64,000 bases of DNA, from assembly GCA_008632985.1 (NCBI GenBank), contig QPGO01000012.1, positions 558,001 to 622,000 on the forward strand, in the 5' to 3' direction. Positions within the stretch are counted from its first letter, which is position 1. Each line of letters begins with the position of its first letter. Positions 1 to 40,323 of this stretch are shown in pieces. The notes under the pieces are model-generated. The model had not been told where the DNA came from. It saw only the letters and a list, made by a program, of their open reading frames with translations, and made no database searches. The position numbers and the translations under genes are program-made. Source of the stretch: Psammoneis japonica (taxonomy: Eukaryota).

Positions 1-1858
1 GCTGTGAGAGCCCAGAACCCACCCGGAAGGTTTTTACAGAAGGACGAAAAGACTGGCATGTACTATGATATTTCAGACCACAAAGCTCGCGAAAAGACAA
101 GCCAAGCGCTACGAGAAGGTGCACCCGACATTCGAAAAGAAATCACCGGCGCCACCCCGAATATCCCGTTTCCGCTCTACAATATGCAATCGCACCCCAT
201 GGCTCCGGATATCGTCGCGACTTACAACCAAGACTCGAATTCGGGAGGAAGTAAATCAGGGAAGAAAACTGATCTGGCAAGACAAGTTGAGCAATGTTTG
301 AGTATGAGAAATGCTCTTGTATCGGAGCAACAAGCAAAGAGCGACACTGTGACCCCAGCATCAGCAGACGCATCTTCGACGGGAGCAAACTCTACATCTG
401 TCCAACCATCGCAGGCGCCTTTGGCGGGCACAATTTCTACCTCGGCCCAGCAACCGCAGTCGCAGACATTTGCCGGATTTCCCAACGGCCAAGCGGTGCA
501 ATTCCAAAAGGCAATGGCACCGGGTGCTTCAGCAGGTCTATCTTTTCCACAGATGCAGCAGATGAATCAAACAGCCCTGATGACAGGCGCCACGGTATGT
601 TCAGTCCAACTTGTCGTCGTTCTTGAATGGTTTGTTTTTGATTGATTGCTTACATTCATTCGTGCTTTCACATTTGTGAACACTGAAGCCTAACTTCATG
701 AACCCAGCATTGATGGGTGCGTCCAACCCTGTCGCGTCTATGGCGTCGGGTTCTACAGCTCCAACTGGCATCGCTGCTAATACACTTGGCCCTCCTGCCA
801 CGTCCATGGCTGCAAACGCCACAAATAATGGACTTAATCTCACGTCGAGTTCTGCAGCTCCGACAGGCCTTAATCCTAATAATCTTGGAGCCCCAGCCGC
901 GCCCATGCCTGCAAATGTCACAAATAATGGGTTCCATTTTAATTCTTTTGGTGCTCCAAACTCCTTCATGCCTTATCTCCCCGGAATGGGGCTTCCTACT
1001 TCGGCGCTTCCGGGTTCAAGCATGCCACGCCCCGGTAGTTCTGGTTTTGGTACTCCAGCTTCTCATACCCCAGGTGTTTCGTCAACTGCTGATGGTCTGA
1101 GTGCCGCCACTGCTAGCACCCAGAATCCGAACTTGGCTGGCAATTTTTATAACGGACGCGCAATGGGAGGCATTACACAAGCACCCCAACCTGTCGTCAT
1201 GACAAACATCCTTCAGTCCAGCTCTGACTCGCAACAGCGTCAGTCATCTTCCGGTGAATCGAATGGTCCTCCTCCGCCGCCGCCCTTGACGCCGGATATG
1301 GCTCTTCGTTTGGTTTTCGCTGAAACCATTTCTCAACAGACTGCTAAAGGGAATGCCAGTGCTAATATTTTGGCTGCCGAGAAGAGTTTCGATTTCCATT
1401 TAGAGGCAGGACTATTGGGGATCAATCCTAACACGATGGTCAAGTGTTTAGCTGAGGGATACTCGGAGAATAGCATACTGAAGCGGTACAAAGGGTATGT
1501 GGCTGAAGCGGCGGTTGAGCAACAAGAAAAGGAAGACGTGTCACCGCAAAATGCTGATGGCGACGAATCAATCGCAGAAAAAGAAGGCGAGGACGATCAC
1601 GATAGCGGGGAAAGCAAAAAAGGAAGCGAGAAGGAAAGTAACTCCGAGGATGAGGGTAGTGCTTCAAAGAATCATGAAGTGGAGAATGGAGCAGCGACGG
1701 AAAAGAAACGCGAAGCGCCAGCCAACGACGATGAAAAGCCATTGAAAAAGTCAAAGTATGAGGTGTGGGTACCAGAGCTATCGCGGCGTCTTCAAAATCC
1801 AATTGAACGCAAAGTTGTCGACGCTCTTATCTGTATTGGTGCGATCGACAGATCGTAA
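1..1858 (+). CDS. DUF6824-domain protein (5'-partial); exons <1-594 and 689-1858, phase-0 intron 595-688
   Basis: NPPGRFLQKD...YYDISDHKAREKTSQALREG matches the diatom-expanded DUF6824 motif. The GTATGT donor at 595 and AG acceptor at 687-688 join ORFs 4..645 and 698..1858 in frame. The C-terminus is low-complexity and acidic. Confidence 0.8.
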
Positions 1859-8545: not shown

Positions 8546-9630
8546 CCCGCCGCCGCCATGTGAGATGCGAGAGCACGGGGTTGCCGTCTAGCAGTAGCTA
8601 GCAATCACTCTACCTGCTCTCTAAGAGAGAGTTAGTAGAGCCTACCGCATCGCCATTGTACCGGTGCCATAGAGGTTTTGGGTGCTGTCGGTGTTCAGTG
8701 TGCCGACCGAGTGCTGTTCACGAGACCCAGTCGACAAACAAAGGAAAAGAAAAAGAATGTAAACTCACAGAGTGTCTGCCGTTGTGCACTGGTCAAAATT
8801 CTTGCCCTGAAGTGCATGATGCTCATCGCTCATCGCAAACGCAGCATGTGCAACTGGTTTTCAACGGGCAGTCGACGTGTGTCAGATTGAGAAACTTCAA
8901 ATCGCACATTCCCGCCGGAACTGGCCCAACCATGTTCGTCGAGCTTAAGTCCAAGAGTTGGAGCTGGCTCAGCTGCAAGAGCTCCGTTAGAATGGTGCCA
9001 GTCATTTTTGCATTGGAGACATCAAAAACTTCCAGCTCACTTGGCTGGCCAATGCCTGTTGGAGTTGCACCCGTGAAATCGTTCAAGCTCACATCCCAGA
9101 CCTCCACATCCACAACACTGCTGATCTCGGTGAACAAAGTGCCTGTCAAAGAATTGTTGCGCACGGAAAATGCTTCCAGCTCCGTAAATGCAGGGGATGC
9201 GTTGAATTGATTCACAAGCCCAGACACCATGTTGTTGTTGAGTCGAAAGTTTCTTGCAGCAGAGGCGAGACCAAAGCTTTGAGGGAAGGTTCCACCAAAG
9301 GCGTCATCACTAAAGTCCAAATCGACTTTCAATGCCCACACCAGCACCCAAATAAAGTGACAGATGAGAACACATGCAACACGCCAAACAAAGCGCAAGA
9401 CACAAACTTGCGCAACTTTCGACCAACATCTGTGCCTAGAAAATCAATTGGACCAGAACCAATGCTGTCAAGAAGTGCACCCAGATCATCAAGTTCCGGA
9501 ATTTGGCCTGTCAGTGTGTTCCAGCTTACATCGACAGTCTCTGCGCAATTTGGCAGTTGACAATTCATTCAACCAGGCGCCATGAAGAAAGGGCAAATTG
9601 TTGCACACAATGCTCATCAACAAATCAACT

Positions 9631-9906
9631 TGACAGGATTTGAACAGGATTTGGGTGCGTGCGAAATGTCGCGCACTGTTTAGCCCACCGCGCACAGTTT
9701 TGTGTGCTTTGGTTCCGCGCGTTCGCGCGTGATGTAGTTTGCTTTCGAGCCACAAGGCTCACAAGAATGACAACAGCAGCCCGATTTTACCGACTTGCAC
9801 GTCTTTCGGCTCCTGCAACGGTCTCTGAGCGGAGACTCATCTGCCATTTAGACAGCAGCAAGGAGTTGTTGTTTGAATTCTTGCCATTTGCCTTCATTTT
9901 CTGTCA
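9631..9906 (+). repeat. 5' LTR
   Basis: About 94% identical (hand count ~16 differences) to 16474-16749. Confidence 0.95.
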
Positions 9907-10854
9907 GATTGACAGTCTTGCTCATTGTCAACCCATTGAGCAACCGCCATCATCGTCGTTGATTTACCGACGACGCCATCTCAATTCTGCGTGGACCTCC
10001 GCATGTGTTCTACGTACATCGGCAAGTCTGCGCGCATTCAATGCCAGGGCATCGGCAGGAAGTTAACGTCACCGTCAAGTCTCCTTACCGCTGGATGTCT
10101 GGATTGATTGTGCTGCCTTTGATCGCTGAAGACATGCATTCAACGGTCACATCCAAGTCTGTCCTTGATCCTCATCCCTTGAAACACCCATTCATCGGTT
10201 AACGGTCAAGAACCCCACACATTCAAGGATCTTCGTTGCTGAAGACATGTGTGCACACACACATCTTCACGGCCAAGAACTTGTGCCCACTCTTCGGACT
10301 GCGGTTTTGCTGCCACTCTACAAGCACACCGAGTCCATTGCACCTGATCTACCCCGGACTGCTGGTGCTCTGCAGATCTGCCAGGTCCACGAGGACAACT
10401 GTGAGAGCAAGCAGCCGTGATTGCAGCCTGCGTTGGGGCGAGGGTGCTTTCCCACATTTGTTCGTTCGTCCACAGCGCCTGACGCCTGCGTCAACTGGCC
10501 AGCCTGATCGGGAAATCCAACCAACACAAAACAAGAACGGTTCGGGGGTCTTGTCCACCTCTGGTCAGCTCACCTGCAGGGGTTTACAACCCGCCACTCC
10601 GCTCGTAAGCAACCCAAAGTGCCACTGGCTGTGGGTGCGGATGTGCCGGCACAACTCTACGGACCGGATGGGAAGTTTAGCACTCAACAACGAACGGGGT
10701 GGCAAAGCCCGGCGACTTCTGATTTTAAGGCAGTTCAAGATTTCAAGTCAAGTCCACTTCAAGTCAAGTCTGTTCTCACCCAAGTTTCAAGTCTACCTTC
10801 ACTGCCTTCGCTTCCCAACAAGAATTGCTTGTCCTGACACCACTTTTGTCTACC

Positions 10855-13800
10855 ATGGTTCTCACTCGTCAGCAACAAACCGATGGTTTCGAGCACGTTG
10901 TTGGAGCCGTGCTTGCCCAAGGTGCTGGGAGCCCTCTTCGTTTGGCTTTGACCCAAGACGGCACGGACTCGCATCAAGAACTGTTCACGTTCATGCCATC
11001 CCAAATCGACTCGCTTGAGTGCGACAACGGCACCAATGTGATCCCTTTGCCCCGCGGTTACAAGAACATGTTAGCAGCTCTAACCAGTCTGTGCATTGTC
11101 AAAGCACACGAAGGTCTTGACGTTGCCAATGACTCCTCGTTGTTCACGCATGACGAGTTCCTTGCCTGCCGCCTCAGCCCCGACTGCATGTCTTCTGTGT
11201 CCGTCGGCAGCTCACCCCTCGCACCTCCGCATGTCACCAACCCGACCAAGGCACGCGACCCGGTACGAGACTTCAAGCGAGGCATCAAGCGTGACCCCAC
11301 CGCTTTCACGGCTCTCAAATCTGACAAGCAGTGGCACACTTGGCACACCTCACTTGTGGCACAAGCCCATGCCCAAGACGTCGAGTGCACTCTAGACTCG
11401 TCGTACAAACCGACCAGCCCCGAAGACAAACTGCTCTTTGCTGAACAGCAAAAGCACATGTTCGCCATCTTCGAACACATTCTTCTCACTGACAAGGGCA
11501 AGGCTCTCATTCGCGAAAATGTTGGGTCTTCTGACGCTCAGACCGTCTGCCGCGCCTTGTCTGAGCATGCGCTCGCCTCCACCCGCGCATCTGTCGAGTC
11601 CTCCACCTTGCTCACGCACCTCACCACCGCACGTCTTGGTGATGGCACTTGGAAAGGTCCGACCCACGGGTTCATCCTTCATTGGCAAGATCAGTTGCGC
11701 AAGTGCGAGGCACTCATCCCGGCCAGTGACCACTTCTCTGAAGGACAGAAGCCCGTCATGCTCGAGAATGCCGCACACCCTGTCGAGGAACTCCGTGCTG
11801 TCAAGAACCAAGCTGATCAGCATCGTACGCAGAGTGGCAAGAGCCTCACATACGATCAACACTGTGGCTTGCTCCTCTCCGCGGCGGCTCAATGTGACAG
11901 TGCGTTTCAACCCAAGACGACACCTTGAGCTCCCCGACGTGCCACATGCGCACACGATGTCTGCTCCGAGGAACCGTCCGACAATGTGTTCTACGACATT
12001 GACAGTGACATTGACGTCCTTCAGGCCAATGCTGCCTGCACCCGTGGTCCCAGCCTCACCGGTGACCAATGGAAACGTCTCCCTCCCGACCACCAACGGA
12101 TTTGGGATTCGTTGCCCCATTCCTCCAAGGCGATCATCCTTGAGCATTCTCGTCCGCCTCCCCGCAACCCGCGAGCCAGCAACTGCCATGAGTCTGTCAC
12201 GGCCAACCTTCACGACCAATGCCTTGGGAGTGGCGGTGATGTCAACTTGTCCAACACGACTCCTGCTGACTCTGGTGACCCCGCTCCAAATGTGGGTGCC
12301 ACTTCGGATGATCCCATCCTGGCGCACCTCACCAAGCACAAGCCACTGCCACCCGGTGATCTGCAACGTCTGTTGTCTCCTGACCAAGCCCCCAACGCCA
12401 GTCGACCGGGGCCATCCACCGCTCCCTCTGCTCCGCCAGCTCCTGCCGATGACGTGGAACTTGATGGCCGCACTTGCCGCCACGTCAACAACCACAATGT
12501 CATTTGCTCTGCCTCTGCTCATCGCTCCACACGCACTGGTGCTCCAGTCGATCGTGGGGCCAACGGCGGCATTGCTGGCGACGACGTCCGCGTCATTGCA
12601 CGCACCTCTCGCCAAGTCGACGTTCAGGGCATTGATGACCACCAATTGGTGGACATCCCCATTGTCACCGCTGGTGCCGTCATTGAGACTCAGCGTGTTC
12701 CCGTCATTGCCATCCTCCATCAGCACGCATGCACGGGCAAGGGCAAGACCATTCATTCCTGCGGCCAGCTCGAATGGCACAAACAGGATGTCAACGATCG
12801 CTCTGTCAAGGTGCCCAATGGCTTGCAATGTGTTGCCACCCCTGATGGCTGTGTCATCCCCATTGACATCAAGGGCGGCCTGCCTTGTGTTGCTGTGCAA
12901 CCTCACACTGACGCCGAATGGGACACCCTGCCCCATGTCATCCTCACTGGTGATGACACATGGGATCCTTCCGTCCTTGATCACTCTGTCACTGACGACG
13001 ACCAGTGGCACGACGCGATCTCTGACCTGCAGGACGATCCCACTGCCAACCTGTTTGACGAATGCGGCAACTACCGTCACCGTGTCGTTGTCAACAAGGC
13101 CATCATGTCCGCCTCCTTGTCTGCTGATCACGCGTCCGTCCTTGATGACCACCTCATTCCGAATGACGACGTGTTCTGCGAGTGTCATCTACACGCGATT
13201 GACCCCAAGGACGTCGACGTCCCGCCCCCGGAGCGCACTGTGCAACCCAAGGACCCCCCCTTCGAGTCTCTTTGGCCTTGCTTTGGCTTCCCACCTGCCG
13301 ATGTGGTCCATCGCACTTTTGACTGCACCACGCAGCACGCCCGCATGCCCGCCGGTGCACACCTTAGGAAGGCCTGCAAATCACCCAACCCCGCCCTTAA
13401 TGTGCACCGCCGCAACGAGCCCATCGCCACTGACACAGTTTGTGCCGACACCCCGGCCGTCGACTCTGGTTGCACCAGCGCCCAACTGTTTGTTGGCACC
13501 GAGTCTGCCGTCACTGACGTCTACGGCACCAAGACGGACAAGGAGTTTGTCAACACACTCGAGGATCAGATCCGTGAGCGTGGTGCCCCATCCAAACTCA
13601 TAAAGCGACCGTGCTCAAGTTGAGATCAGCAACAAGGTGCTCGGGATTCTACGAGCCCTCTTCATCTCCAGCTGGCAAAGTGAGCCTCACCAGCAACACC
13701 AAAACTTTGCCGAGCGTCGACACCAGACCGTGAAGCGCATGGCGAACACTGTCATGGACCGTTTCGGTTCGCCTGCCCACACATGGCTGCTGGCGCTCAT

Positions 13801-16526
13801 GTGCGTGTGCTTCACACTCAACCACACAGCGTCCCCATGTCTCCACTGGCGCATGCCCCTCGAGACTCTCACTGGCTCCACCCCGGACATCAGCCCATTG
13901 CTTCGCTTTCACTGGTGGGAACCCGTGCACTTCCACCTTGATGACTCCGATTGGCCATCCGAATCCCGTGAGTTGCGTGGACGCTTTGTTGGCATTGCTG
14001 AGCACGTCGGCCACCAGATGACCTTCAAGATTCTCTCTGACGAGACTCAGAAGATCCTCCACCGGTCCAACGTACGCTCCGCCACCCACCGATCCTGCCG
14101 TTCGAAACCTGCGTCTTGATCCTCCTGATGGGGAGCCACCTGAACCCATCATCAAATCTCGCCATGACGACAACCCTGTCGATTCTCCTGATGGGGAGAT
14201 CAGGACACCCAAGATGCCAGTTTTCGATCCGCAAGACATCATCGGACGCACCTTCCTCATGCAGCCACAAGAGGATGGACAATGCCACAGAGCTCGCATC
14301 GTCAAGGCCGTCGAAGACCATGAATGGAAAGTGAACGGCAATCCCGAGCTCACTGAGTTCGTCTGCTCTGTCAACAACGACGAATGCGAGGAAGTCCTTG
14401 CCTGCAACGACATCATGAATCACATTGAGCAAGAAGACGAAGACACTGCTGTTTGGAAATTTCGATGAATCGTGTCACACGAAGGACCTCTGAAGCCTCA
14501 TGACCCAACCTGGAAAGGCTCAAGCTACAACATCATGCTTGAATGGGAAAGTGGGGAGATCACGTCCGAGCCTCTTGCCATCATCGCCAAGGACGACCCC
14601 GTCACCTGCGCCATCTATGCACGAGAGAACGGACTTCTCGACACTGATGGCTGGAAGCGGTTCCGCACCATCGCGAGGCGCCAGAAGAAGCCATTTCGCA
14701 TGGCCAACCAAGCCAAGCTTTGCTCCTTCCGCACTGCACCTTGCTGCAAGTGCGGATGCGAAGTTCCCCCGAACTGCAAACACGCCATGTCACTGGACGA
14801 ACGCAACGGCAACCGCAAATGGGGAGACACAACTAACCTTGAGATGGACCAACTCGAGGAATGCCAAGTCTTCCATGACTGCGGGCCCTTCGAGTCTTCC
14901 ACTCCTCCTGCGGGACACAAGAAGATCCGAGTGCACCCAGTGTACGACGTGAAACACGACGGTCGCCACAAGGCACAACTCGTGGCCGATGGGCACCTCA
15001 CGGACGTGCCTGTCGACAGTGTCTGCTCCGGAGCAGTCTCCCTCCGTGGCCTTCGGCTGATGATTTTCCTGGCCGAACTCAACGAGTTAGAGACATGGGC
15101 CACCGACATTGGCAATGCCTGCCTTGAAGCCACCACCAAGGAGAAGCTCTACATTGCAGCCGGACCCGAATTTGGCAAACTCGAAGGACACATTCTTGTC
15201 ATCCACAAGGCCCTGCATGGACTGCACAGCTCTGGTCTCCGCTGGCACGAGCGCTTCGCCGACTGCCCACGAGCTGAAGGATTCTTCCCCTGCTGCACCG
15301 AACCCGACATTTGGATGCGCAGGAATGGCGGCCACTGTGAATGCATTGCCGTTCATGTGGATGACCTCGCCATTGCTGTGAAGGACCCTCAATCTTTCGT
15401 CGATGCTCTCACGGAAAAGCACAAGTTCAAGCTCAAGGGTGCGGGACCCATTGAGTTCCATCTGGGTTGCGACTTTTCGCGGGATCCCGACGGAACCTTG
15501 TGCATGTCTCCGCGCAAGTACATCGAGCGCATGGTTGACAGCTGCGCCCGACTGTTTGGGGAGAAACCTGCCACCAACGCCCTGTCACCTCTGGAGAAGG
15601 GTGACCACCCCGAACTGGACACTGCCGAACTGCTGGGGCCCGATGGCATTCACAAGTTCCAGTCTCTTGTTGGTTCACTCCAGTGGGCAGTGTCCCTTGG
15701 TCGAATTGACATCACCACGGCCATCATGTCACTCTCTAGCTTCCGAGCTGCGCCCCATCAAGGCCACTTGGACCGTGCCAAACGTGTCTGTGGTTGCCTC
15801 TCCAAGATGCGACACGGTGCTCTCCGCGTTCGTACGGAAGAGCCCGACTGTTCGGATCTCCCTGCTCCGGCCTGTGAATGGATGCATTCCGTGTACGGCG
15901 AAGCAGAAGAGATGATCCCGAAGGATGCTCCACCGCCCCTTGGCAAGTTCGTCACTGCCACCCACTACGTCGATGCAAACTTGTGCCATTGCATGCTCAC
16001 CGGACGCTCTGTCATGGGAATGCTCCACTTCCTCAACAAATTCCCGGCTGATTGGTTCTCTGAGAAGCAAGCCACCGTGGAGACTGCGACCTGCGGGTCT
16101 GAATTTGTTGCCGCAAGGACTTGTGTCGAACAGGTTGTCGACCTGCGCATCACCCTGCGCTGCCTTGGCGTCCCGATCCGCAATGTCAGTCACATGTTCG
16201 GTGACAACAAGTCGGTTGTAGACAGTGCCACCATCCCGCACTCCAAGTTACACAAGCGACACACCGCACTGTCGTTCCACCGTGTGCGTGAGGCGATTGC
16301 CTCTGGTCACCTTGAGTTCCACTTCATCGAAGGCTCCCGCAACCCTGCTGACATTCTCAGCAAGCATTGGGGTTGCTCCCAAATCTGGGACCTTCTCCGC
16401 CCCCTCATGTTCTGGAACTTCATTCCATCCGAAGTCGAATCTGTTTCTGTGACTCCTCAAGCAAACTGGGGAGTGACAGGATTTGAACAGGATTTGGGTG
16501 TGCGCGAAATGTCGCGTGCTGTTTAG
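10855..16526 (+). pseudogene. Inactivated gag-pol polyprotein
   Basis: DFKRGIKRD (gag), VDRGANG (protease), EPHQQHQNFAER (integrase), HVDD (RT, from YVDD), NPADILSK (RNaseH). In-frame TGA at 11926 and 14466 (probably from CGA); frameshifts near 13600 and 14085. Confidence 0.9.
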
Positions 16527-16749
16527 CCCACCGTGCACAGTTTTGTGTGCTTTAGTTCCGCGCGTTCGCACGCAATGTAGTTTGCTTTCGAGCCACAAGG
16601 CTCACAAGAATAACAACAGCAGCCCGATTGCACTGACTTGCACGTCTTTCGGCTCCTGCAACGGTCTCTGAGCGGAGACTCATCTGCCATTTAGACAGCA
16701 GCAAGGAGTTGTTGTTTGAATTCTTGCCATTTGCCTTCAATTTCCATCA
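16474..16749 (+). repeat. 3' LTR preceded by a short purine tract (ggggag)
   Basis: Matches the 5' LTR and is followed by TSD CAACT. Confidence 0.95.
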
Positions 16750-18474
16750 CAACTTGCCAAGTGACAACAAGTCTTGCAGCAACGTTGGCGGGAGGGCCCC
16801 CGACAGCATGTTGTTTCTGAAACTCACCTCCACAAGCATGTCAAGCATGCCTGTTTCGAATGGGACTCTGCCCGTCATGCCAAAGCCATCCAGTTGCAAT
16901 CTGCTCACTCTTCCGTTGCCAAGGCAGCTCACGCCATCCCAATTGCAGTGATCATCAAAAGGAAATCTCATCCACCTCGAAGCCTCGGTGTTCCACTGAT
17001 GTCCACTCGTTGAAATGAAAAACACTGTCAATGCACACCTGTCACATGTGGTTGCTGCACTTTTGACAACAGGTTTGAATTCATTTGCATTCACAAGCCA
17101 CCAAACAGCTTGAACTTTTGGGTCACATGCATTTGACAGCAACCCTTGCATTCGATTGGTGAGATTAAGATCATTCAACAAGTCTTGAAGTTCTTGTTCT
17201 TTCTCTTGTCCAACAATGTCAACCAAAGTCTGGTTGTTCCCTGGAGGTGCGAAACAATGGCATTGGACCAAGAGATCCTCCTGGGATGCATCTTGGCAGA
17301 CAGCATCGTCGCCCATTAAAGATTTTGAGGACGATGTGTCTTTCCTAGATGATGTCAACACCACGGCGGTGATGACACCCGCTGCGATCACGGCAACTGC
17401 CACAATCAGCAACAGAAGGTTTCGCAAATGCTTTTGTTTGATGGCCACGGCTTGTGCAATGGGATGGTGGCTTTCACCGCCGGTGATCTCTTCTTCCCGT
17501 TGCACAAGAACAGCACTCACCATCACCCCAATGTCATCACTGCCGCCTCCGGCATCCAAATTGTTCCCACCACCAATGTCATCAATGACTTCATTTTCTG
17601 GTTCCAATGGTCCCACGTGAACTGCTCCCACATTTGTCCTTCCTTCCAAAGAATCCATGTCACAGGGGAAATGATGCTCCACCTCATTGGATGTCATTTG
17701 TCTCGATGGGTCGCCAACTGCTGATTCGCAGTTGTTTGAAGTGGCAGCTGTGCCACCCGAACAAACTGGAGAAAAACGCTCCAAACCCATGTTGTGATTC
17801 TCAGATTTGCATCCATGAAACAGTTTGCTTTCTTTTTGGACTCGATCGGGGTTTTAGTGTGCAAGAATCTCATCACTGTCTGGTTTGGAAACATCTTCTA
17901 TTTTGCCTTCATAGACGAAAGGTGTTGTTGCTGTTGTTGCTTCGCTAGAGTGTTGCTGCATCTCTGAAGTTAGAGGAGCCGTTTTCAAGTTGGCAACAGG
18001 AACCTCTTTTAAAGAATGGCACAGCTGCATTGGACAATTCGAGCTTGCCTCATCCTCGCGATCTTCCCCATGCCTTCCAGCACGGCCACTGGATCGTCTG
18101 GACATTTTGTTTCTTCGCTCTTCTCTGTTGCTTGAACTCAACACAATTCCAACAACTGAGGTTGAATGTGTGGCGGGAAACAATCAATCCGGAACTCTGG
18201 CCACCATTTTAGAGGGAATCAAATGTGTTGTTATTCTGATGAGCAGTGGGGGTTCTTGAAAACACATGTTGTGCGAAGTTTGATGCATTGCATTGGAAAG
18301 CATGGGACTAAACATCGCGTTCTTGGTCTTGTTTTTTTTATTTTTTCGGCGATGCGCCGCGGCGGCGTTCACAAAACGTGCATTTGAAAATGGTTTGCAG
18401 CAGTCAAGCGTTCTGTTGGGTCTCCCTTTTTCTGCACGGGCAGATGCGCACACTTCCCTGACAGAAAGTCCCAT

Positions 18475-18595
18475 TGCAACACACAGCCACCAACAAGAGC
18501 CAATGTATCATGGCGATGTGTTGCAGCCTTTAAATGTCACAAAGGGTGTGACAAAAACAACCTTTTGTCTGCATGCATGCTGCACCATCCTTCTT
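18475..18595 (+). repeat. ~115-bp dispersed repeat; two inverted copies at 53253-53362 and 53590-53700
   Basis: Shared core gcagccttta(a/g)atgtcacaaagggtgtgacaaaa..accttttgtctgcatgcatgctgca with a GTCAC-N7-GTGAC hairpin. Confidence 0.8.
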
Positions 18596-18754
18596 TGTCG
18601 TTTTCAAACACTCAGCCCCAACTTGAAAGACACTTGCACTCTGCTCATCAATGTGTGATGCAATGTTGATGAAAAGAAATGGCAAGCTTGCAGTGGCTCA
18701 TTCTGGTGGCTCACAGTGAGGCACTGCTGATTCTGCTGCGGGCTCTCCACAGCC

Positions 18755-19177
18755 AATGCAGTCCACGAGTGAAAAACAGGTGGGCTGCATGACTGCACAA
18801 TCATTGCCCTCTGACACTTGTTGCTGCCTTCTTGTCTCTTGTGGCTGATGCCCCCCCCAGCAAAGCTCTCTGGTTGGCTGTGGCAAAAGCCATGAGAAGA
18901 TGGGCACCTTGTCCATGAATGTGTGCCAACAGGAGAGACCGAGAGATGCAGCCCAAAGTGTGGAGAATGCAGTCCACGAGTGAAAAACAGGTGGGCTGCA
19001 TGACTGCACAATCATTGCCCTCTGACACTTGTTGCTGCCTTCTTGTCTCTTGTGGCTGATGCCCCCCCCCAGCAAAGCTCTCTGGTTGGCTGTGGCAAAA
19101 GCTGCAAGAAGATGGGCACCTTGTCCATGAACGTGTGCCACCAGGAGAGACAGAGAGATGCAGCCCAAAGTGTGGAG
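18755..19177 (+). repeat. Tandem duplication of a ~211-bp unit
   Basis: 18755-18965 and 18966-19177 are nearly identical. Confidence 0.95.
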
Positions 19178-22100
19178 AGTCTCTTGTTGTTTCTCTCTGC
19201 CATGTCTTTTCTGTCTTCTTGCTGCACTTAAAAAAAGCATTTTGTGACAGCACCACATCTTTGGCTTGGCTGTTGATGCAACAGACCATGAGAAACTGGG
19301 GCACGCAAAACATTTTCCATTTTCCTGTCAAAGCCATGCACAACTCAGTGTCTTCATCCCAGCACACACCCTCTGAAACATTTCAAAAGAAAGTGTCACA
19401 TGTGGGCATCATGTCACATGGGCTTTTTGCTTTTGCATGTGTGCAAAAGACAAGCTCCAAACACTGGTGTGTCATGCAGTGATCCATTCACTGACTTGTT
19501 CCTAATCTGTTGCACAGCTCTTGTGAGTTTCCACTCTTGGTTGAAAATTTCTGAGCTCCAATCATTGTCAAGAATCTGATTTCTCTCAACCAAAAAAAAT
19601 TGAGCTCATCTGGCACAATCAACAAGAGCCAACAGCTGCAAATAAAGTGCATGAACTCATGTGATGCTTTTTTGCCCAGCTTGGTTTTGTGTCCCATGGG
19701 ATTCCCCAAAATTCATTGCGCCAAGGGGTTGTCACCTTTTGCTGCACAAGTCTCAAAAAATTACCTTGAATGTCACTTTGCTGCTTGTGTGCTGCAGACA
19801 TGAGCATGGGTTTGTGTTGGGAAATTCCCATGCTTCCCCTTCAAAATTTGTCATGTGCACTCCTGCAGATGTTGCAATTGTCAGCCACCACACATCCTTT
19901 GCAGCCACATTGCGCCCACCACATCAACTGCCTTTTTAAAAGCTTGGAGCATTGCTCACTGACAAGGACACAGCTGCTGTGGCTTCTCTGCAGCTGCTGC
20001 ATCTTTTTGTTGCCATGTTCATGCCATGTGTTTTTTCTGATGCCACACAGCTGGTGCTGCATGTTTGTCATTGTGATCTGGATGGCAGCCGCATGTTCTC
20101 ATTTGGACAATCCTCCACACATCAGCCAAACATCACCACAGCTGCCTCTTCAACAGTCATGCCATCAGTTGATGTGCAGCCAGCATGTTTTTTCATGTGA
20201 TCCACCACACTGCTGCATCTTTTCATTGCCACATTGATGCCACATGATGTGTTTTGTTTTGATGCCATGCAGCTGGCATGTTTTTTGTTGTGATCTGCAC
20301 CATGACTCTGTCTTTTCACTTGGCAGATGCTCACCTGCATCTTCTTCACTTGGTTCCATGCTCCCTTGGCTTTTTTGTTCATGCCTGGGGTTGTTGTTTT
20401 GCTTTTCATGTAAAATGCATTCTTGGCATGACTGGTGGCAATGAGCAGGGTGATGATCCCAGGATTGGTGTTGACAACAATGAGAAGCTGTGTGGCTTGC
20501 GATCACCACAAGCATCTGGGACAACAATTTTGCACATGAGGAGGCAGCCAGCTGGGCATGCAGCTGGCACAAGCAGTCATGCAAAGGGCCCAATGCAAGG
20601 AAAGCTGCTGCCCATCTCTCTCTAAGATCAAGAAAAGATGTGTGCTGAGACCTGCAGTGCCAAGATCACCAACAGAACTGTGCCAAGTGGTGTCATGGGC
20701 TGCACAGCTCTTTGCAAGAACATGTGGCAGCCAAAGATGAGCTTGTCTGTGCCACGCCAAAGATGCAGATGCCAAGGCCAATGAAGCATCAGAAGCTGCT
20801 TCATTGGTCAAGTGGCAGCACAGCAGCAGTGCTGATTGATCAACCCAACCACAGATCCAAACATCTGTCATGGCCTGCTCAGTCAGTTCTGGTGGCACCA
20901 GCACCACTTCAAGCCTGCCATGCTTGCTGCAGCCATCAATCTTTGTCACTTCTGTGGGCTGCCCTTTGCCTTGCACACAACTGCCTGTTTTTCAAGCAAG
21001 CACACTTGTCACCACCTGCAGTCCCCCTGACAACAAGAAAGTTGGAGATGACCCACTTGGCACCTGAGTCATCTGAGGTGCATCAACGACAATGAGAGGG
21101 TCATTTTTGCTGAATCAAAGACATTTTGGTCTCTTTTGGGGGGGGGGGGCAATGGGGGCTGCAATTAAGAAGCTGCCCCCATTTGATGCATTGCGACTTG
21201 CCACAAACACCCCACCAGTGGCATTTTGGAAATTCGCAGTTGCCAGGAGGAGCACATGGCCAAAGAAGGGGGGGAAAGAATGCACCCTGCATCACATGAA
21301 TTTTTTCTGGGTCACAATCATCAGGAGCTTGATTTGCAAAAGGATCCAGTTGATGCACTCTTCTTTGATGGGTTCTCTAACATTCAGAAAGTGGAGCAAG
21401 AGATGCCAGAGGTTGAGTTTCCCCAAGCTTCCTGTCTGCATGGAGCCAAGCATTGCACTGTGCTGCTCTTCCATGATGCAACTGAGACAAAGCCCATGCA
21501 GGCAATTTTAATCATGTGTTTGTTTTTTCTTCTTTGAAGAAGGCATTTCTCTCACTCATCTGCTGCCCTTTTTACCTGAATTGTGCAAGACTGTGATGAT
21601 GTTGTGAGCAAAACAGCTTCATCATGTGTTTGGCTTTTGCTCAAGTCATGCTGCTCATGCCACATTTGTGAGCCAGTCAAAGCATGTCTGCCACAGCACA
21701 GATGCATGTCTCCTCAAAGGTGCAGATGCTGGAATGACGCCTTTTCTTTTGCCATGCACTGCACCATGTGCCTCCAAAGTGTTTTTCTTGCCAAAGTTCA
21801 CACTTCTCAGTGGACCAGTCTGAGAGAGAAATTTAAAAAAAGAACCAGACCAATTGCATGGTCACAGCTCCACAAATGGAAACTTCCAGCAAGCCATTTG
21901 TCACTTGTTGTGCTGTGCATTCCCAGTGCTCCTGGTCCTGTGCTGTGCAAATTCCAACCTTCTTGGCATGGGTGAACCGTGCTGCACCTCACCAACACCT
22001 CGCCAACAGAACCACCAAGGTCCTCAAGCAATCAACTGACAGTCTCAATGATGAGACTTGTTTTCCTCTCCAAGCTGCAGTCAGTGCAGCTGACATTGAA

Positions 22101-23088
22101 GATGCAACTGATGGCATCTTGCATGACAAGACAATGTCTTCTGACAAAACTGATGATGCTGATGATTTTTTTAGGCCAAAGATGACAATGATCGTTCCAA
22201 GTTGGGTGACAATTTGCCCGGTGCAGTCAACCTGGCAACAATGTTGAGAGGCAGGCTCAGAAGAAGTGGTGAGAAAAGTTGAAGAGCAAGTTTGACAAAG
22301 TTGTTTGGCTTGTTTGTGTGCAGCCAGAGGTCATCGACAATGCAGAGCTGCCAGCCAGGGCCTGACATTGACAACAAAAACTCTTGTTTGTGGCACAAAA
22401 AAGGCTTCCTCCCACAGCACACATTGCATGGCACCTCCACACCTTTTCAATCCCATGCCACAAAATGAAGTCCAAATCCTTGAAAGCTCAAGCAATGAGA
22501 AACAGTTGCACTTTTGTCCCACAGCAAAAAGGTTGAAACAGAGCAACCACTGTCACTGTCTTCAATGAAAATGGACACTCAGACAACTTTGCTCAAACAC
22601 TGTCATGCCAAGCATTTGTGGCGTGTTTCTGTGGCATCTGTCAAAAAGCAGTTGTGCCATCAAAGACCCACACATCATGGTTTCTGAATGTGTGGACTGC
22701 ACAAATGAAGAAGAAGAAGAAAAGGCAAAGGCTCAAAAGAGTGGAAGTGACAATGCCAGTCCCAAGAAGCATCACAATGTTGTAAAAAATGTGACAGCAA
22801 AACCAGCTGCAAACTGCATGATGGGATGCTTTCATGATGAAGGCCAAAGGCTGATTGAATGCATTGAATGTGTTTGCCAGCAAAAGTTGTCACTGTTGGC
22901 GGGCCATCATTTGTGTCAGTCAGATTATTTTGCTGTGTGGTGCAGCATAATGATGCATTGCCACAGGTTAGATTGGTGGCACTCGTTGCACCCCTTGGTG
23001 GTGAGACATTGGAAACTTTTTGACAACATGTCAATGAACAAATGATGTGTTAATTGTTGACAACATGTTGACAAAAATGAGTGATTTA

Positions 23089-23445
23089 GACAACAGTTTG
23101 CTCAACCATCACATCTTTTAGATTTGGGATGATGGTCAACAAATCTTTGATGAATGAGTTGGTTGGACAACAGTTTGCTCAACCATCACATGTCAGATTT
23201 GGGACAATTGTCAACAACACAGTGCAAACAAATTTGTGGCATGGACAACAGTTTGCCAAGCCATCACATCTTAGATTCGGTGCAATGGTCAACAACATTT
23301 TGATGAACAAGTGGTTCAGATGACAGTTTGCTCAACCATCGCATCTTAGATTTGGGACAATTGTCAACAACACAGTGCAAACAAATTTGTGGCATCAACA
23401 ACAGTTTGCTCAACCATCACATCTCAGATTTGAAACAATTGTCAA
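23089..23445 (+). repeat. Tandem repeat, ~5 copies of a ~78-bp unit
   Basis: Recurrent acagtttgctcaaccatcacatc..agatttgg..caattgtcaaca. Confidence 0.85.
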
Positions 23446-23637
23446 TGTCAAATTGAGTGTGTGATGCAAACAATGGCTCAGCACACCCTGCTGAGGGGTG
23501 TTGCACAGACAGACTTCACAATTTTTGGCACATTTGCAAAAATGGACCTGCTGCATTGTGGGCAAAGACTTCATGATCGTGGCTGAATAACGACAAGCCC
23601 ATAACCCAAACTCGACATTTGACTTCGAGTCAAAGTA

Positions 23638-23755
23638 AGCTAAATGAATAGTGTAAAACGTTAAGTGTCATTTCCACTTCGACACAGAGACAGCTATATG
23701 ATTAGTGCAAATCGTTAAGTGTCATTTACACTTCGACACAAAGAAAGCTAAATGC
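23638..23755 (+). repeat. Two ~55-bp tandem copies inside a TpA-retaining island
   Basis: gcta.atga.tagtg.aaa.cgttaagtgtcattt.cacttcgacaca occurs twice. Confidence 0.8.
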
Positions 23756-26700
23756 TTAACGGCAGTGGTCAGAATTCAAATTCTGAGCAATACAGAAATG
23801 TCAATGATGAATAAGGATTTTAGATCCCTTCTGCCCTTAATGTCATTATTCCAATGCCACTAATGAATACACAAATGAATTTGTATTCCATCCTTTTCGT
23901 AAACTTTGATCTATCGGCATTTTCAATACGAGTGCGCGATGACAACAATAAAGCATGCTTGTATGTGTCATGGTCATAAGCTGTAAGGCATACCGTCACA
24001 TTTGGATTGAACTCGGGGATGTTGGTGTCGAAAGTAGCCATTTGTTTGACATTCGTGATTTTTCATCGCCCACAAATTGGGATTTCAACTGAGTCGAGTT
24101 GATGTTGGACGTGTGCAAAGCACTGCGTTTGATGAAACAATTGAGGGCTCTGGGCTTATGGCATTTTATGCCATGGAGACTTAAAATGGTGAATGGGTTG
24201 ACAATCAAGCCAGTGATCGGGTTTGCCAACATTTCCAAAAATGTGACAACAAAAATTGCATCACTCAACAACCAACAACCCCTCAAGAGAAAGAAACAAG
24301 AAAAGTGATTTCTCTTTGCACTTGAATTAAAAGAGACAACAATGCACAACAAATGTTCAAGAAGGACAAGAAGCTCTTGAATGCATGAAACAAGAAGAGA
24401 GTCAATGAATCACTCTTGTTTCGAACCTCTTGCCCTGTTCTCTCCTCCATGGTGGTTGGTTGAAAGGTTGGTGGTGGTTTTTTGTGAGATTTGCAGCTTG
24501 ATGCATGTTGATGCATGAACAAATGGCCCATGTGTGGTGTCACCTTTGGAATGTGCCACTTGTGGAGCTTGGGTGGACAGCTCTCTGTGCTCAAGCTTTG
24601 TCCGCCAAATGCTCCGTCAAAAAGTCCAGATGCTGCCCCATCCCACCCAACCATTGAAAAAAAAACAGTTCTTGCAAAATGCTGTTGCCTGTTTCCCTCT
24701 TCCTCTGCAGAGCAGCTCTCTTGGTGACAGTGCCACCCACACACCAGACTGTGCTCAAGAATGCTTTCCAACCTGCCAGCCAAGACACTCAGCTCGGGGC
24801 TGTGTGGGCTCGAATCTCTCTCAAGACAAGCTGCTGAGCATGTTTCTGGCACTGGCGGCAATGCTGAGCCCTCCTTCCTGTTTGACTTCCCAGGGGTGTG
24901 CCCAGACTGCCTGCATGCTGGCCCAACCACAAGAGTTGCTGTTTTGCCAGTTTTGTCAGCAGGATGTGCCAAGGCTGCTCTGGCCATGTGTGCCTGGCTG
25001 GCACCACAATGCAAAGACAGGTGCGACAGCACTTTCTGCTGTCAGCAAAGAGTGTGAGCTGGCTGGACTGCCCAACCCCACACTTCACAGTTCCTTGGCA
25101 GTCACTCCAAATCAAGTGCCAGCTTGGGACCAACTGCACCTGGCTGGTTGCAATGCAAAGACAGCTGTGACAGCAATTTGTGACAACAAGAGAGTGTGAG
25201 CTGGCTGGGCTCCTGACCCCAGCACAGCCACTTCACAGCCCCTCAGCACTGGCTCCCAATCAAATGCCAACTTGGTGCCAACAGCCACAAAGCCATTGTT
25301 GCAGATCTCTGCACCTGGCCCCTCACACAACATGTGCAGCCTTTACAAAATGGGCCCCTGGCCAACTGCAGACTCCTCATGGCTTGCAACAAGCCACCAC
25401 AACACAGAGCATTGTGGGGTGAATGCAGCACAGCTTGAGCAAGCAAGCCATGCTGGAAGCACTGAGAGCTGGCTGCTGTCCTGGAGCTCCATTCAAAGCT
25501 GAGCTGGGCTGCTTGGCTCCTTGGTGGGTGGCACATGCTTGCTTGGCATCACATTGTTGCCAAGCAGAGCCACATGGCATGTGCCCACCATTTGTGCCTG
25601 CAACAGTGATCCCTGGCCACAAAAAAGCCAACAAAAAGTTGAGCCTGCTTTTGTGGTTGAAGGGTGAAGAAATTGTGAGTGAGGTTGGGTTCAAGAGTTT
25701 GTTGGCAATGCCAAGTGGGCAGCCAAAGAGAGGCACCAAAAATGACTGTGTGAAGTGTCTCTCACTCATTTCTCAAGAGGAGCTTGTGCTCATGATGCGG
25801 GGTCTGAAGCAAGCACCAGTCAAGAGGACAACAATTCTTTCCCTCTCTGTTCCACCCAAAACACAGCCTTTGAGTCAATGTGGTGCTCCTTCAACAATTG
25901 ATGCACACACTGGGAGGAGCAGCTGTGGAGCCAGGGCAGCAGGCCTGGCAGGGCTTGGCTCACAACCAAGCTGGGCTTCTCAGCTTGGCAGCACACACTC
26001 AGAGTCACATTGTTGCCCTCCTGCAGCTGCAATGTGCCCCACTCTTTGCACCTGCAGCAACCACCCTGGACCAAAAGAAGCCAGTGCAACTCTGGCCCTG
26101 GTTGCATGGTCAAATTGTGTGTGTGTTCAATTGTCAGAATCTCCCCTCCTTTTTTCCCTTTTCCTTTAAACCGGCCATGAACATGAAAAAATTGCTGCAT
26201 TGTGTGCCCCTGCATCATTTATGACACCTGCAGAAGAGGTTTCTGCCTGAGGCAGAAAGAGCAGCACATCATGCAGGTTGACACAAACTAATGACAATTG
26301 CCAAAATTGCAAATGCCACACTGAAAATGTGAAAATCCCAAAGTGGCACTAAAAAGTGGCACTTGGCACTCAGCAGGCCACCATGTCCCTTCCTTCCAGA
26401 GGAATTTCACCCTCCAATTGTTGCCACAAATGCCATCATGGGTTTGGTCCATGCAATGTCCTTGAATTGTCACCACTTGCCATTGACAAATGCCCTGTGG
26501 GTGACTCCATTTCTGGAATGAATGGCACAGCCATTCACAAGGGCTTGCATGGCATGCAGCAGAAGATGCAAAATTGCAAGCCTGACCAGCCTTGCTGTGA
26601 GCTCTGGCACAACCATGCTTGTCATTGTGGAGAGGAACCATGTGACAACCTTTGGCTTTGTCCAACTTGTCAATGTGGTTGCTGAGCTGCTGTCAGACCA

Positions 26701-26775
26701 TCAATGGTTCTTCCCGTTTCAGGGCACAGTTGACAGGGACAAGAAGGCCACACATGGACAACAGCTGGCTGCAGC

Positions 26776-27715
26776 TCATGGTCTTGAGATGGCCCTGTCC
26801 AACCAAGACTTTGCTGCCAACAACTGCAGCATGAACTTTTCAGCAGTTTGGGGGGCATCATGTGTGCCTGTTGTTGCAGACGCCAACCTGTGCAATGCCG
26901 CAGTCCTTGAAGATCCACGTCTCATCCAAATTGAGCTTTCTGTTGTTGTCTGAATCTCCCGAAACCAGGTCAGTGATCGGCTGTCTTCTGCAGCAACATT
27001 GGAAAGTTCAAAGTTGCCTCTGTTTGTCACTGTGTGCTTCCACGTGCCGTTCTTCCCCTTGTCGATGTCCAATCCATCATCTCCATTGGTCACTGTGTCA
27101 ATCAAGATCAATGCATTCACGCCGCAGTGTGATGTCGGGTCGGATGCGTCTGCCTCTTGTCCATTGGACAGGGCCGACGTCGATCCAGTGTTGTTGAACA
27201 CTCCCTCATCGGCGGTGCCGCAGGCCTCATGCACCCACATTTCAGTCGGATCCAACTTTCCGTCCCTGTTTGAATGAGCAATGAGGGATTGGAATGCTCC
27301 AGAACTTGAGCTGCCAACCACAGTCGAACTCGTTGACCAGCAGACAGACTCGCAATCAGCCGGAGAGCTGCATTTCTTGTCAGTCCGAAATTGCCCAGAT
27401 GCTGTCGAGCCTGTGTTTCTGTAAGTTGGTGGCCAAGATGGCTCATTGCCCAGATTGGTGATGGCACAAGTCCAGGCAATGGGCTCTCCAACATCAATGT
27501 TGGGCCCGTCTTGGCCGTTCGTCACTGTGTCAATCCCGGTGGATGCACTCATGCCACAGCAAGAAGTGGGGTCGGAATCGTCCACTTTAATGCCATTCGC
27601 TGTGCCCTCAGTTGATCCGGTGTTGTTGTAGATGCCGACCTGTGCAATGCCGTAGTCCTCGAAGATCCACGTCTCATCCAAATCGAGCTTTCCGTCGTTG
27701 TCTGAATCTCCCGAA
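26776..27715 (-). pseudogene. Truncated relic of a repetitive Ig-like surface-protein gene (DUF11/DUF7507-like repeats)
   Basis: Repeated GDSDNDGKLD.DETWIF / DTVTNG.DG / W.(Y->C/H)..TN.GN motifs; the 5' end is cut at the 27717 repeat. Confidence 0.55.
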
Positions 27716-27716
27716 A

Positions 27717-27775
27717 AAGTTCGTTGAGTGAGTCACGGATGGAGAGAGAAGATTGAGTCCCGCTTTCTTTGCCAC
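27717..27775 (+). repeat. ~60-bp direct repeat, copy 2 (copy 1 at 8481-8545)
   Basis: Direct sequence comparison. Confidence 0.9.
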
Positions 27776-28041
27776 GCACGCACGCATGCCCACGCGCGCG
27801 AACAACACGTCATTGCGGAGGACCGACAGACCTCCTCATGGATTGAGATAGAAGAAGCAAAAAGCAAAAAGCAAAAGCAAAAAAGAAAGCGAAGCAGCAA
27901 CGAGCTGTTGTATCTATTAATAACATCACAGATCAAAGCCCTACGCTCTTTTGACTATCTTTTGCTCTCTTAATTCTCTTAGAGAGTGAGCGATAAGCAT
28001 ACAAATACTTTTCTTTTTTTTAAGAAATCGACAGAGATACC

Positions 28042-38300: not shown

Positions 38301-39890
38301 GGGTCTTGCGCCAATGCTGCCGATGACAGGCCTCATTTCTGCTCATGGAATGGGCTTCTGTGGACATGAACAAGTTGGCATTTTTGTTGGAGAAAACTTG
38401 GCAAAAGCCTGTTGAACAAAGGTCGCCAATGCTGTGGAAGGAGTGTTGAAATTGGGGGCAGGTTGACTCAAGCATTTTCAAAAACAGGGATGGAACAGCT
38501 CTCTTTCCCCAAATCAGCAACGAAAACAGCCGAGGCATCTTGACGATGATGAGCACGAGAGGAGCCGCATCACAGAACAGGTGAGCAGCAGCACTGGCAT
38601 CAATCAACCAACACAAACAAGAGCTCATCTGCCATTGTGTGCCAGCTTTTGTCACACAGAGCCAAGAGGAGCAGATCGTCTCCTCTGAGGAGGTGCGCCT
38701 CTTGCATCAAGTGCGTTTTCCGCCCGAGGCAGCAGCCAAGGATGGCGATGATGCTGAGACATCTGCAGCGTGACTCTGAAGGTCAAAAGCAATGATGCAC
38801 ATCACAACATCCCCTCAACAATGACTGCATCGCCTCATGCTCCCGCATCACACAGCATGTGCACATGCCGATTCGATGTGACAACAAGGAAAATGCCGTG
38901 CCTGGACACACAAGCTTGATGAGCAAGAATGTTGGAAGGAGGGGTGGCTCATCCATTGTTGAGCCACTGGTGGCTGAGACAGCCACAGGAAGAGCCTTGG
39001 GAGGGTGGCAAGCAACTGGTGGATCAACCAGAGGGATCTGCCGCACAGCCACATGACCCTTCTTCAAACGACCCCGACACCGCCCAACTGCACACAAGGA
39101 GCTGTGAGGCACCTGCCCAGAGAGTCCAAGGAAAGGAAAATGAAGGACCTGGAAGCATGATTTGAAAACAATGAGTGAAGCCACCAAGAGACTGGAGAGA
39201 TGCTTCTTTGGGCTGCTTGGCTCCTGCAGCAACAGGTGGAGCGGCCATGATCTGGGAGAGGCAGAGGGGGTGGAATGTCAAATGATGAGATCCAATGTCA
39301 CCGTTCACAGCACGATCAATCAAGATGCAACAAGATGGCATTTTGTTGACTTTGTGCTGAAAAAATGCTAAAAATTGCACTGGCCCTCATGATGTCTGGT
39401 TGTGTTGAGTCTAATTTTTGAGTGTCTCGACTGGGGTGTCTTTCGGTTATTTGCACGTTGAGTTTTCTTAAATGTTGTGACAGTGACCCACAGGTGCATG
39501 AATGACCACACAGTGACACATGGCACGCAAATCAGCCAAGGGCAGGCATTTGCATGGCTGAATTCTCCACACTCTAAGACATGGACTCCAAATGTGTTGT
39601 GCATTGCGGCTGCTGCAGAGTCTCTTCTTTGCACTCAAATTGGCGGGAGTTAAACGACTGTTCAATGGCTGTGGCAGGACACCCCCACGCAGAACCTGCG
39701 ATCCTTGATTGAGGAAAAATCCCGGGAGACTCTCTAGAGAGCAGCAGACACTGGCTGCTGCTGGCAAGAGCCAGCAGAGAGCAGAGAGAGCAGAGTCCAA
39801 CACTCGAGAGGAGGAGTCGGCGGGCAGACAAGCTGGCTCCGACGCCAGGCAGGCGCGCGCCATCCACAGGCACAGAGCCACGTCACCGAT
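35190..39890. other. TpA/CpG-depleted block C (minisatellite plus unclassified TE relics)
   Basis: Composition; VENAFG..SNR near 36150-36180 (-) resembles a DDE transposase motif. Confidence 0.75.
35388..35900 (+). repeat. Minisatellite, ~13-bp unit AACTGCACCCTCC
   Basis: Dozens of degenerate copies. Confidence 0.9.
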
Positions 39891-39940
39891 AGTCTAATTT
39901 GCCGACGTTCCCCTTTTTCTGTTCCGACCGACTGACTGAC

Positions 39941-40323
39941 TACCGTACAAGTATGGGGACATACCGAATGATTTTAGCCAGTGGCTAAAATTTTGTGTAG
40001 ACACATACCAGGTTTGTACGCTGGTATATTTTCTACACAGAAAATATTTACTATCCATTTTACTGAAACTATAAATGTCATATCTGTAACGGTTTGCTGC
40101 TAACTATAACGCTCGTTAATATAAAATATATAGTTTTTAAGCGTCTAAAAATAAATACAAAAACAAAAAACTACAAATATATAGTATGTATATAAAAGAA
40201 AACAATGGGGTAGCGTTAAAAGGCGTTATCATTAAATATATCGTATACCAGGTGAAATGCGTAGAATTCTACGGGAGGTTTTTAGCCACTGGCTAAATTT
40301 ATTCGGGATGTCCCCATACGGTA
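39941..40323. mobile_element. AT-rich MITE, ~40-bp TIRs, TA-flanked (Tc1/mariner-like)
   Basis: gtatggggacataccgaatgattttagccagtggctaaaa (from 39951) matches the reverse complement of 40280-40319; outer TACCGTA/TACGGTA; no ORF. Confidence 0.8.

Follow-up and report, generated by a model that had tools for sequence, protein, structure and literature searches.

The long terminal repeats of a dead copia element in Psammoneis japonica mainly record CpG decay, with a separate TpA-directed process indicated on the same DNA

Which mutational process has driven apart the two long terminal repeats (LTRs) of a retrotransposon, and did it act on chromosomal DNA? This question is raised by E1, an element at positions 9631-16749 of a 64,000-nucleotide stretch from the diatom Psammoneis japonica (assembly GCA_008632985.1, contig QPGO01000012.1, forward-strand positions 558,001-622,000), which is called the window below. 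An initial annotation had proposed that the LTR pair of E1 records independent hits at TpA dinucleotides on opposite strands. We found that the LTR pair mainly records the decay of CpG dinucleotides, while the coding region and other copies of the family pointed to a second process in which TpA is turned into TpG or CpA.

Any such comparison presupposes that the two LTRs were alike at insertion. This premise is valid because E1 is a single Ty1/copia LTR retrotransposon that derives from one integration event. A repeat search returned direct LTRs of 276 nt at 9631-9906 (5' LTR) and 16474-16749 (3' LTR), both on the plus strand, which could be aligned without gaps; the 5' LTR has TG...CA ends and a 6-bp terminal inverted repeat (TGACAG/CTGTCA). 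The element is flanked by a target-site duplication, with the 5-mer CAACT present at 9626-9630 and again at 16750-16754 (plus strand). Since this duplication is intact, the differences between the LTRs arose after one integration event. As a caveat to the premise, a late-acting deaminase on the cDNA could make LTRs already differ at integration.

The LTR pair differs at exactly 16 sites, comprising 14 transitions and two transversions (T/G at site 157 and T/A at site 267, with sites numbered within the LTR). Each of the 14 transitions falls within a pyrimidine-purine (YpR) dinucleotide, a class that takes up 144 of the 276 positions (hypergeometric P = 8e-5). The hand count of about 16 differences with about 14 YpR transitions was therefore accurate, the examples quoted with it (tttAg/tttGg, gaatAa/gaatGa, and the terminal cTGtca/cCAtca) are all present, and the differences do fall on both strands. 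With regard to type, we counted four CG/TG differences (sites 28, 30, 61, and 161), one CG/CA difference (site 97), two TA/TG differences (sites 81 and 139), one TA/CA difference (site 158), and three reciprocal pairs with TG in one LTR and CA in the other (sites 44-45, 100-101, and 272-273). The three TA-type differences agree with the TpA hits that headed the initial annotation; the five single differences of the CG type had been left out of that heading. Steps common to both LTRs number 15 for CG, 3 for TA, 20 for TG, and 22 for CA. Divergence amounts to 5.8% over all sites against 1/132 (0.76%) at non-YpR sites, which bears out the warning that LTR-based dating would overestimate ages; in such genomes the inflation is about 7-fold. 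Sites 157, 158, and 161 (9787-9791 and 16630-16634) form a group of three differences, including a transversion, within 5 nt, and could represent an event that affected several bases at once or a short tract of conversion.

The direction of these changes was judged from other copies of the family. Family states were read from Logan contigs of a public run with 57% of the words of E1, aligned to positions 9000-17500; statements on family variants refer to the 40 listed of 570 variant places and to a small part of the contig ends. At site 100 (9730), C accounts for 120,343 of the 121,111 units of summed family depth (99%, from 44 contigs), giving CG. A contig end of X2 reads CG at sites 100-101 and G at site 97, and a contig end of X4, from one diverged contig, reads C at sites 28 and 30 and CG at sites 44-45. 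Because family copies read CG at two reciprocal sites and at single sites, at least 9 of the 16 differences (five single ones and two reciprocal pairs) are CpG decay. The reciprocal TG/CA pairs had been taken to imply an ancestral TA, a reading to be given up if the family showed CG there, and CG is what the family shows at sites 44-45 and 100-101. Likewise, the proposed ancestor cTAtca of the terminal pair is not indicated: sites 272-273 read TG in a second copy (E2, described below) and in one X4 contig end, and TG completes the 6-bp terminal inverted repeat. Three of the CpG-type hits occurred in the 5' LTR and six in the 3' LTR, over about 22 CpG sites. Seven of the nine, including both CG-derived reciprocal pairs, are located in short (CG)n runs (9656-9662, 9670-9676, and 9722-9732).

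A TpA process on the element was also part of the earlier proposal, and this part stands, although its support comes from the coding region and the family copies and not from the reciprocal LTR sites. Judged by sequence comparison with outgroups, which fix the direction, mutation from TpA to TpG or CpA on E1 is real. For this comparison we used 120 related reverse transcriptases with 60-67% identity and defined a conserved column as one in which a single residue is present in at least 80% of the homologs. E1 has kept only 4 of 24 conserved Tyr residues, and the others have become Cys (14, TGY), His (3, CAY), Trp (1, TGG), or Phe (2), so that Cys, His, or Trp codons now stand at 18 of the 24 positions. 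All 44 conserved Cys, His, Trp, and Gln residues were retained and none had turned into a TA-bearing codon; hence, no reverse change from TG or CA to TA was seen. Conserved Arg residues were kept at 29 of 33 positions (the losses being Cys, Gln, His, and His), and the remaining conserved columns at 381 of 406. Counts based on MAFFT agree (Tyr kept at 4 of 19 positions), and Tyr makes up 1.0% of the E1 protein against 4.3% in the homologs. In E2, only 1 of 21 conserved Tyr residues has been kept (9 Cys, 5 His, 1 Trp, and 5 other residues in their place), as well as 4 of 23 Arg residues, with 14 of the 23 now being Cys, His, Gln, or a TGA stop.

The family copies show the same spectrum. E1 belongs to a very abundant family, with 13,978 contigs of run X1 matching the element, 2912 of them at least 99% alike, and with a summed depth (which is not a copy number) of 53,000-166,000 within the element, compared with about 35 on either flank. 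YpR transitions make up 34 of the 40 listed variant places. Other copies carry TA (in 6-90% of depth) where E1 has TG or CA at 18 of these places, and CG (mostly in at least 90%) where E1 has TG or CA at 12; TA in E1 with CA elsewhere was found at one listed place, as was CG in E1 with CA elsewhere. One CA/TG double, spanning two rows, is among the listed variants. At many sites the share of TA is intermediate, as would be expected if each copy had been hit repeatedly and independently. Within 9950-10400, outcomes are nearly symmetric: at places with TA in other copies, E1 has TG nine times and CA eight times. At each of the LTR sites 81, 139, and 158, which hold the TA-type differences, an ancestral TA is, as judged from rates, fairly to highly probable, because 18 of 24 forward changes compare with 0 of 44 reverse changes and about 42 TG or CA sites are shared by the LTRs.

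These observations led us to favour, with reasonable though not full confidence, an explanation in which E1 is a dead copia element with CpG decay as the main LTR signal and a separate TpA process. Since integration, the LTRs would have diverged almost only at YpR steps, with most of the divergence due to CpG-to-TpG/CpA decay on either strand and concentrated in the short (CG)n runs. The CpG decay would reflect deamination of 5-methylcytosine in a silenced, presumably methylated transposon. A second process on the same DNA would turn TpA into TpG or CpA, i.e. A to G on either strand; it would have removed most TA steps of E1, destroyed most of its Tyr codons, and is probably behind the three TA-type LTR differences. 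A candidate enzyme for this process would be an adenine deaminase with a preference for a 5' T. Alternatively, a thymine modification at TpA, such as an oxidised thymine, may be involved. Oxidised thymine can mispair with G. As TpA is self-complementary, sequence does not tell these two routes apart.

Several observations weigh against this explanation. The evidence base is one LTR pair, and several family states come from single contig ends. Moreover, two CG-derived reciprocal double hits were observed where 0.41 were expected (P = 0.064); because of this excess, the (CG)n runs are likely to be hot spots of CpG decay. Starting from TG, two steps are required to arrive at the terminal TG/CA pair, for which this explanation does not account. 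E2, the sole outgroup LTR, has TG at sites 81 and 139, which is weak evidence against an ancestral TA since E2 is saturated. Furthermore, TA loss is visible at 3 of 12 site-copies in the LTRs (25%) against 18-20 of 24 Tyr codons inside E1 (about 75-83%), while CpG loss is alike inside (4 of 31 CGN Arg codons) and in the LTRs (9 of about 44 site-copies). Because TA loss inside the element so far exceeds that in the LTRs while CpG loss does not differ in this way, much of the TA loss could predate integration, or could be hidden as TG/TG and CA/CA pairs. Finally, Tyr codons of E1 became Cys or Trp 15 times and His 3 times, a sense-strand bias that could stem from an RNA or cDNA stage or only from a preference for a pyrimidine 3' of the A.

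Such a neighbour preference could account for both the gap between LTRs and interior and the bias towards Cys and Trp. In the transposon-like blocks of the window (9631-28000, 36001-40000, and 44001-56000), the residual TA/(TA+TG) is 0.028 for TAT, 0.040 for TAC, 0.057 for TAG, and 0.096 for TAA, these being raw counts that are not scaled to the original composition; among surviving TA steps, TTAA and TTAG/CTAA are kept most and ATAT least. This suggests that the TpA process favours an A that is followed by a pyrimidine. The TA steps common to both LTRs are TTAG, GTAG, and TTAG, and on the changed strand each of the three TA-type differences falls in one of the slow contexts, TAA or TAG. Because the visible LTR TA sites lie in slow contexts, fast TpA sites may be hidden as TG/TG or CA/CA.

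The view that most TpA loss took place before or during integration, through editing of RNA or cDNA or through a mutated template, with only CpG decay and background left to explain the LTR differences, draws on this same bias and gap and on the three TA steps still common to both LTRs. We consider it unlikely but in need of serious weighing. The near-symmetric family variants in 9950-10400 run counter to it, as do the intermediate TA shares, which indicate independent hits in each copy. The same signature also occurs where no LTR is involved: non-LTR duplications at 23118-23423 (D4), 18851-19178 (D5), and 53254-53709 (D6) contain four, two, and two reciprocal CA/TG pairs, respectively, and the single-copy right flank of E1 has a TA observed-to-expected (o/e) ratio of 0.11. 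The TA that remains is most frequent in the contexts TAA and TAG, so that context alone can explain why the shared LTR steps survived. In addition, a comparable process in Bigelowiella natans was seen directly in chromosomal DNA, according to the preprint discussed below. From these analyses, the TpA process most likely works on chromosomal DNA. The statement that mutation followed integration, on both strands and not by RNA editing or reverse transcription, has some footing in the intact target-site duplication and in the three TA-type differences on both strands; as proof of TpA hits in particular, the LTR pair is weak.

The remaining alternatives fared worse. According to the initial annotation, the reciprocal and TA-type differences all derive from ancestral TpA, making the LTR pair chiefly a TpA record. 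The strong TpA loss in E1 and the three TA-type differences are in line with this, and from the internal loss rate TA-derived reciprocal pairs are calculated to be expected in a 276-nt LTR. We nevertheless regard it as very unlikely, given the CG of the family at sites 100-101 (99% of depth at 9730 and one contig end) and 44-45 (one contig end), the terminal TG of E2 and one contig end that fits the inverted repeat, and five more differences that are plainly CG/TG or CG/CA. No more credible is an import of the LTR differences by ectopic gene conversion from other family copies; the abundance of the family and the cluster at sites 157-161 would suit it, but imported tracts would also bring in non-YpR family variants, whereas no non-YpR transition was found and at 9684/9685 the two LTRs are alike and differ from the family. 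That the scarcity of TA reflects selection or a general TA avoidance, as in many genomes, has in its favour that host frames are also low in TA (o/e 0.40-0.54). Avoidance is contradicted by the replacement of conserved Tyr codons by Cys and His codons in an element that is dead, and by TA o/e values down to 0.04-0.1 in old transposon blocks next to a host gene with 9 of 9 Tyr residues kept; we give this alternative almost no credence. A process resembling repeat-induced point mutation (RIP), with CpA turned into TpA, was rejected, as TA is lost here and not gained.

Altogether, post-integration CpG decay combined with a separate TpA process remained the explanation that we prefer, and the composition of the window bears on where the TpA process acts. 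In the window, genic stretches (TA o/e 0.4-0.8, CG o/e 0.8-1.3) form a mosaic with transposon-like ones (TA o/e 0.0-0.15, CG o/e 0.03-0.5), with TA o/e at 0.04-0.16 in the transposon blocks and at or below 0.15 in 30 of the 64 one-kb windows. Over these 64 windows, the Spearman correlation of TA is 0.84 with CG and -0.87 with TG+CA. E1 departs from the former correlation with a TA o/e of 0.15 and a CG o/e of 0.84, which places the loss of TpA ahead of that of CpG. Seven host frames, when pooled, have a CG o/e of 0.87-1.09 alongside the TA o/e given above. A Gpr1/Fun34 transporter gene of the host has retained 9 of 9 conserved Tyr residues and 122 of 125 conserved residues in a comparison with 120 homologs; its closest named relatives are from the diatoms Seminavis robusta (68%), Nitzschia inconspicua, Cyclostephanos tholiformis, and Mayamaea pseudoterrestris. 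An origin of the window in B. natans itself was rejected on account of these relatives and of a TpA frequency of 1.6% against 6.0%. On the basis of the mosaic and of this one host gene, the TpA process targets transposon-derived DNA and spares host genes.

The anatomy of E1 is that of a decayed copia element. A gag-like open frame at 10729-11928 (plus strand) has a protein-like translation without a Pfam family, and its assignment is tentative. An upstream part of pol at 12862-14104 (plus strand) shows homology to N-terminal portions of polyproteins from related elements, as found by tblastn with 12 long homologs; this homology reaches back to about 12862 in two frames other than that of the reverse transcriptase. 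The upstream part is broken by an E1-specific 1-nt insertion at 13602/13603, which is absent from 22,143 of 22,693 of the family depth, and a second frame change lies between about 14083 and 14214. The reverse transcriptase and RNase H frame (P0001; 14469-16526, plus strand, 685 codons), identified by Pfam, its translation, and comparison with homologs, extends into the 3' LTR. It contains an RVT_2 domain (PF07727) at residues 146-357 (E = 3.9e-21; 76 bits, cut-off 31.6), and of its 1709 homologs at E ≤ 1e-10 all of the 120 listed have PF07727. The catalytic YVDD of its relatives reads HVDD in E1. Because of the copy-specific frameshift, the second frame change, and the HVDD in place of YVDD, E1 is dead. 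Directly 5' of the 3' LTR, the purine run GGGGAG (16468-16473, plus strand) is a candidate polypurine tract. No Pfam family for integrase, protease, or gag was found in E1 at E ≤ 1, and a PDB sequence search gave no significant match, the best one for an integrase being the prototype foamy virus (PFV) integrase at a non-significant E of 0.26. Frames of 735 and 598 codons inside E1 look non-coding. Among the 120 homologs, P0064 (from a 10,361-nt ENA contig) is alone in having a low Tyr content (2.3%) with raised Cys (2.5%) and His (5.0%), which may reflect partial TpA decay of a copy in another organism.

E2 is a second, older, and truncated related copia copy on the minus strand at 44866-47899, delimited by blastn, alignment, and tblastn, with its 3' LTR at 44866-45114 and with TA and CG o/e ratios of about 0.05 and 0.11, respectively. 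Its 5' LTR was searched for in the window and not found, so that the window holds no second LTR pair. A metagenome scan with a 19-nt LTR word gave three matches, all of them unrelated outside the word. The window contains 145 open frames of at least 120 codons, many of them in wrong frames and on both strands, because TAA and TAG codons have been lost. Pfam searches of the other 99 long open frames of the window returned ankyrin repeats only and no deaminase family, and the frames of E2 had no match. For work on such DNA this means that Pfam models fail on decayed copies and that the loss of TAA and TAG creates false long frames on all strands. Elsewhere in the window, an open frame at 62202-63998 (minus strand) that runs off the window end encodes an RNA-dependent RNA polymerase domain (E = 1.6e-27) together with a chromodomain (E = 1.5e-06), and may connect RNA silencing with chromatin. 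A repeat array with a 13-nt period lies at 35451-35925 (TA o/e 0.17, TG and CA about 1.9), and an open frame at 1-642 (plus strand) matches Pfam DUF6824 (E = 1.4e-10). DUF6824 is typical of diatoms; a paper search for it gave no matches.

A broader proposal would be that this diatom has a DNA-level TpA mutator directed against transposons, which would be faster than CpG decay, prefer a 3' pyrimidine, and act in the same regions as CpG loss. We lean slightly towards this proposal. If true, this would give stramenopiles an equivalent of RIP in fungi, a chlorarachniophyte being the one other lineage with such a process so far, and it would suggest that genome defence of the adenine-deaminase or thymine-modification type is widespread among algae of the SAR group (stramenopiles, alveolates, and Rhizaria). 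The thousands of family copies offer an abundant natural substrate for measuring the TpA process.

How does the signature of E1 compare with known systems? It resembles methyl-CpG decay in three respects: CG changes to TG or CA on both strands, transposon blocks are depleted of CpG and have an excess of TpG/CpA, and LTR divergence is inflated. It is unlike pure methyl-CpG decay in that E1 has lost CpG (about 13-20%) far more slowly than TpA. As in fungal RIP, mutation is aimed at repeated or foreign DNA and ruins its coding capacity; in contrast to RIP, whose C-to-T changes fall mostly at CpA and so create TpA, TpA is destroyed here and G+C rises. Our case has in common with the editing of retroelement RNA or cDNA by ADAR or APOBEC that the transitions are of the deaminase type and depend on a neighbouring base (for ADAR, a preference for a 5' U is mentioned in 10.64898/2026.01.13.699255). 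ADAR is not known outside animals. Moreover, such editing precedes integration and is biased to one strand, whereas the present signature is found between LTRs, in non-LTR duplications, and in a single-copy flank. Maumus et al. (2009, PMC2806351) describe CpG methylation of copia-type elements in Phaeodactylum tricornutum, as well as the CoDi elements, which resemble E1 in their diatom copia-type reverse transcriptase, short LTRs, and short target duplication; unlike in CoDi, no integrase domain was detectable in E1 (Pfam at E ≤ 1 and PDB search).

The closest parallel is the chlorarachniophyte B. natans. In the preprint by Mettrop et al. (bioRxiv 10.64898/2026.01.13.699255), hypermutation is described as solely TpA to TpG or CpA at 1000x background, seen in mutation-accumulation lines and hitting integrated giant-virus and virophage DNA; clusters poor in TpA and rich in CpA and TpG are enriched in reverse-transcriptase and DDE domains, and an ADAT2-like deaminase is proposed. 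As far as sequence comparison goes, the signature of E1 appears to be of the same kind, reported only in this one 2026 preprint: our literature search found no other report of TpA-directed hypermutation outside B. natans, and a 2025 preprint on diatom transposons was without such terms. As described for B. natans, TpA changes to TpG or CpA on either strand, depletion is clustered and accompanied by CpA and TpG excess, reverse-transcriptase-coding DNA is enriched, and host genes are spared. The two cases differ in that the host here is a diatom and the process is read from sequence instead of being watched in mutation-accumulation lines, and in that TpA depletion here goes together with CpG depletion. 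It is also deeper, with 49 of the 64 one-kb windows at or below 0.43, the 5% cut-off of the preprint, and a TpA frequency of 1.6% against 6.0%. Found in a diatom, on retrotransposons, and at a far greater depth, this signature would widen the range of the process seen in B. natans.

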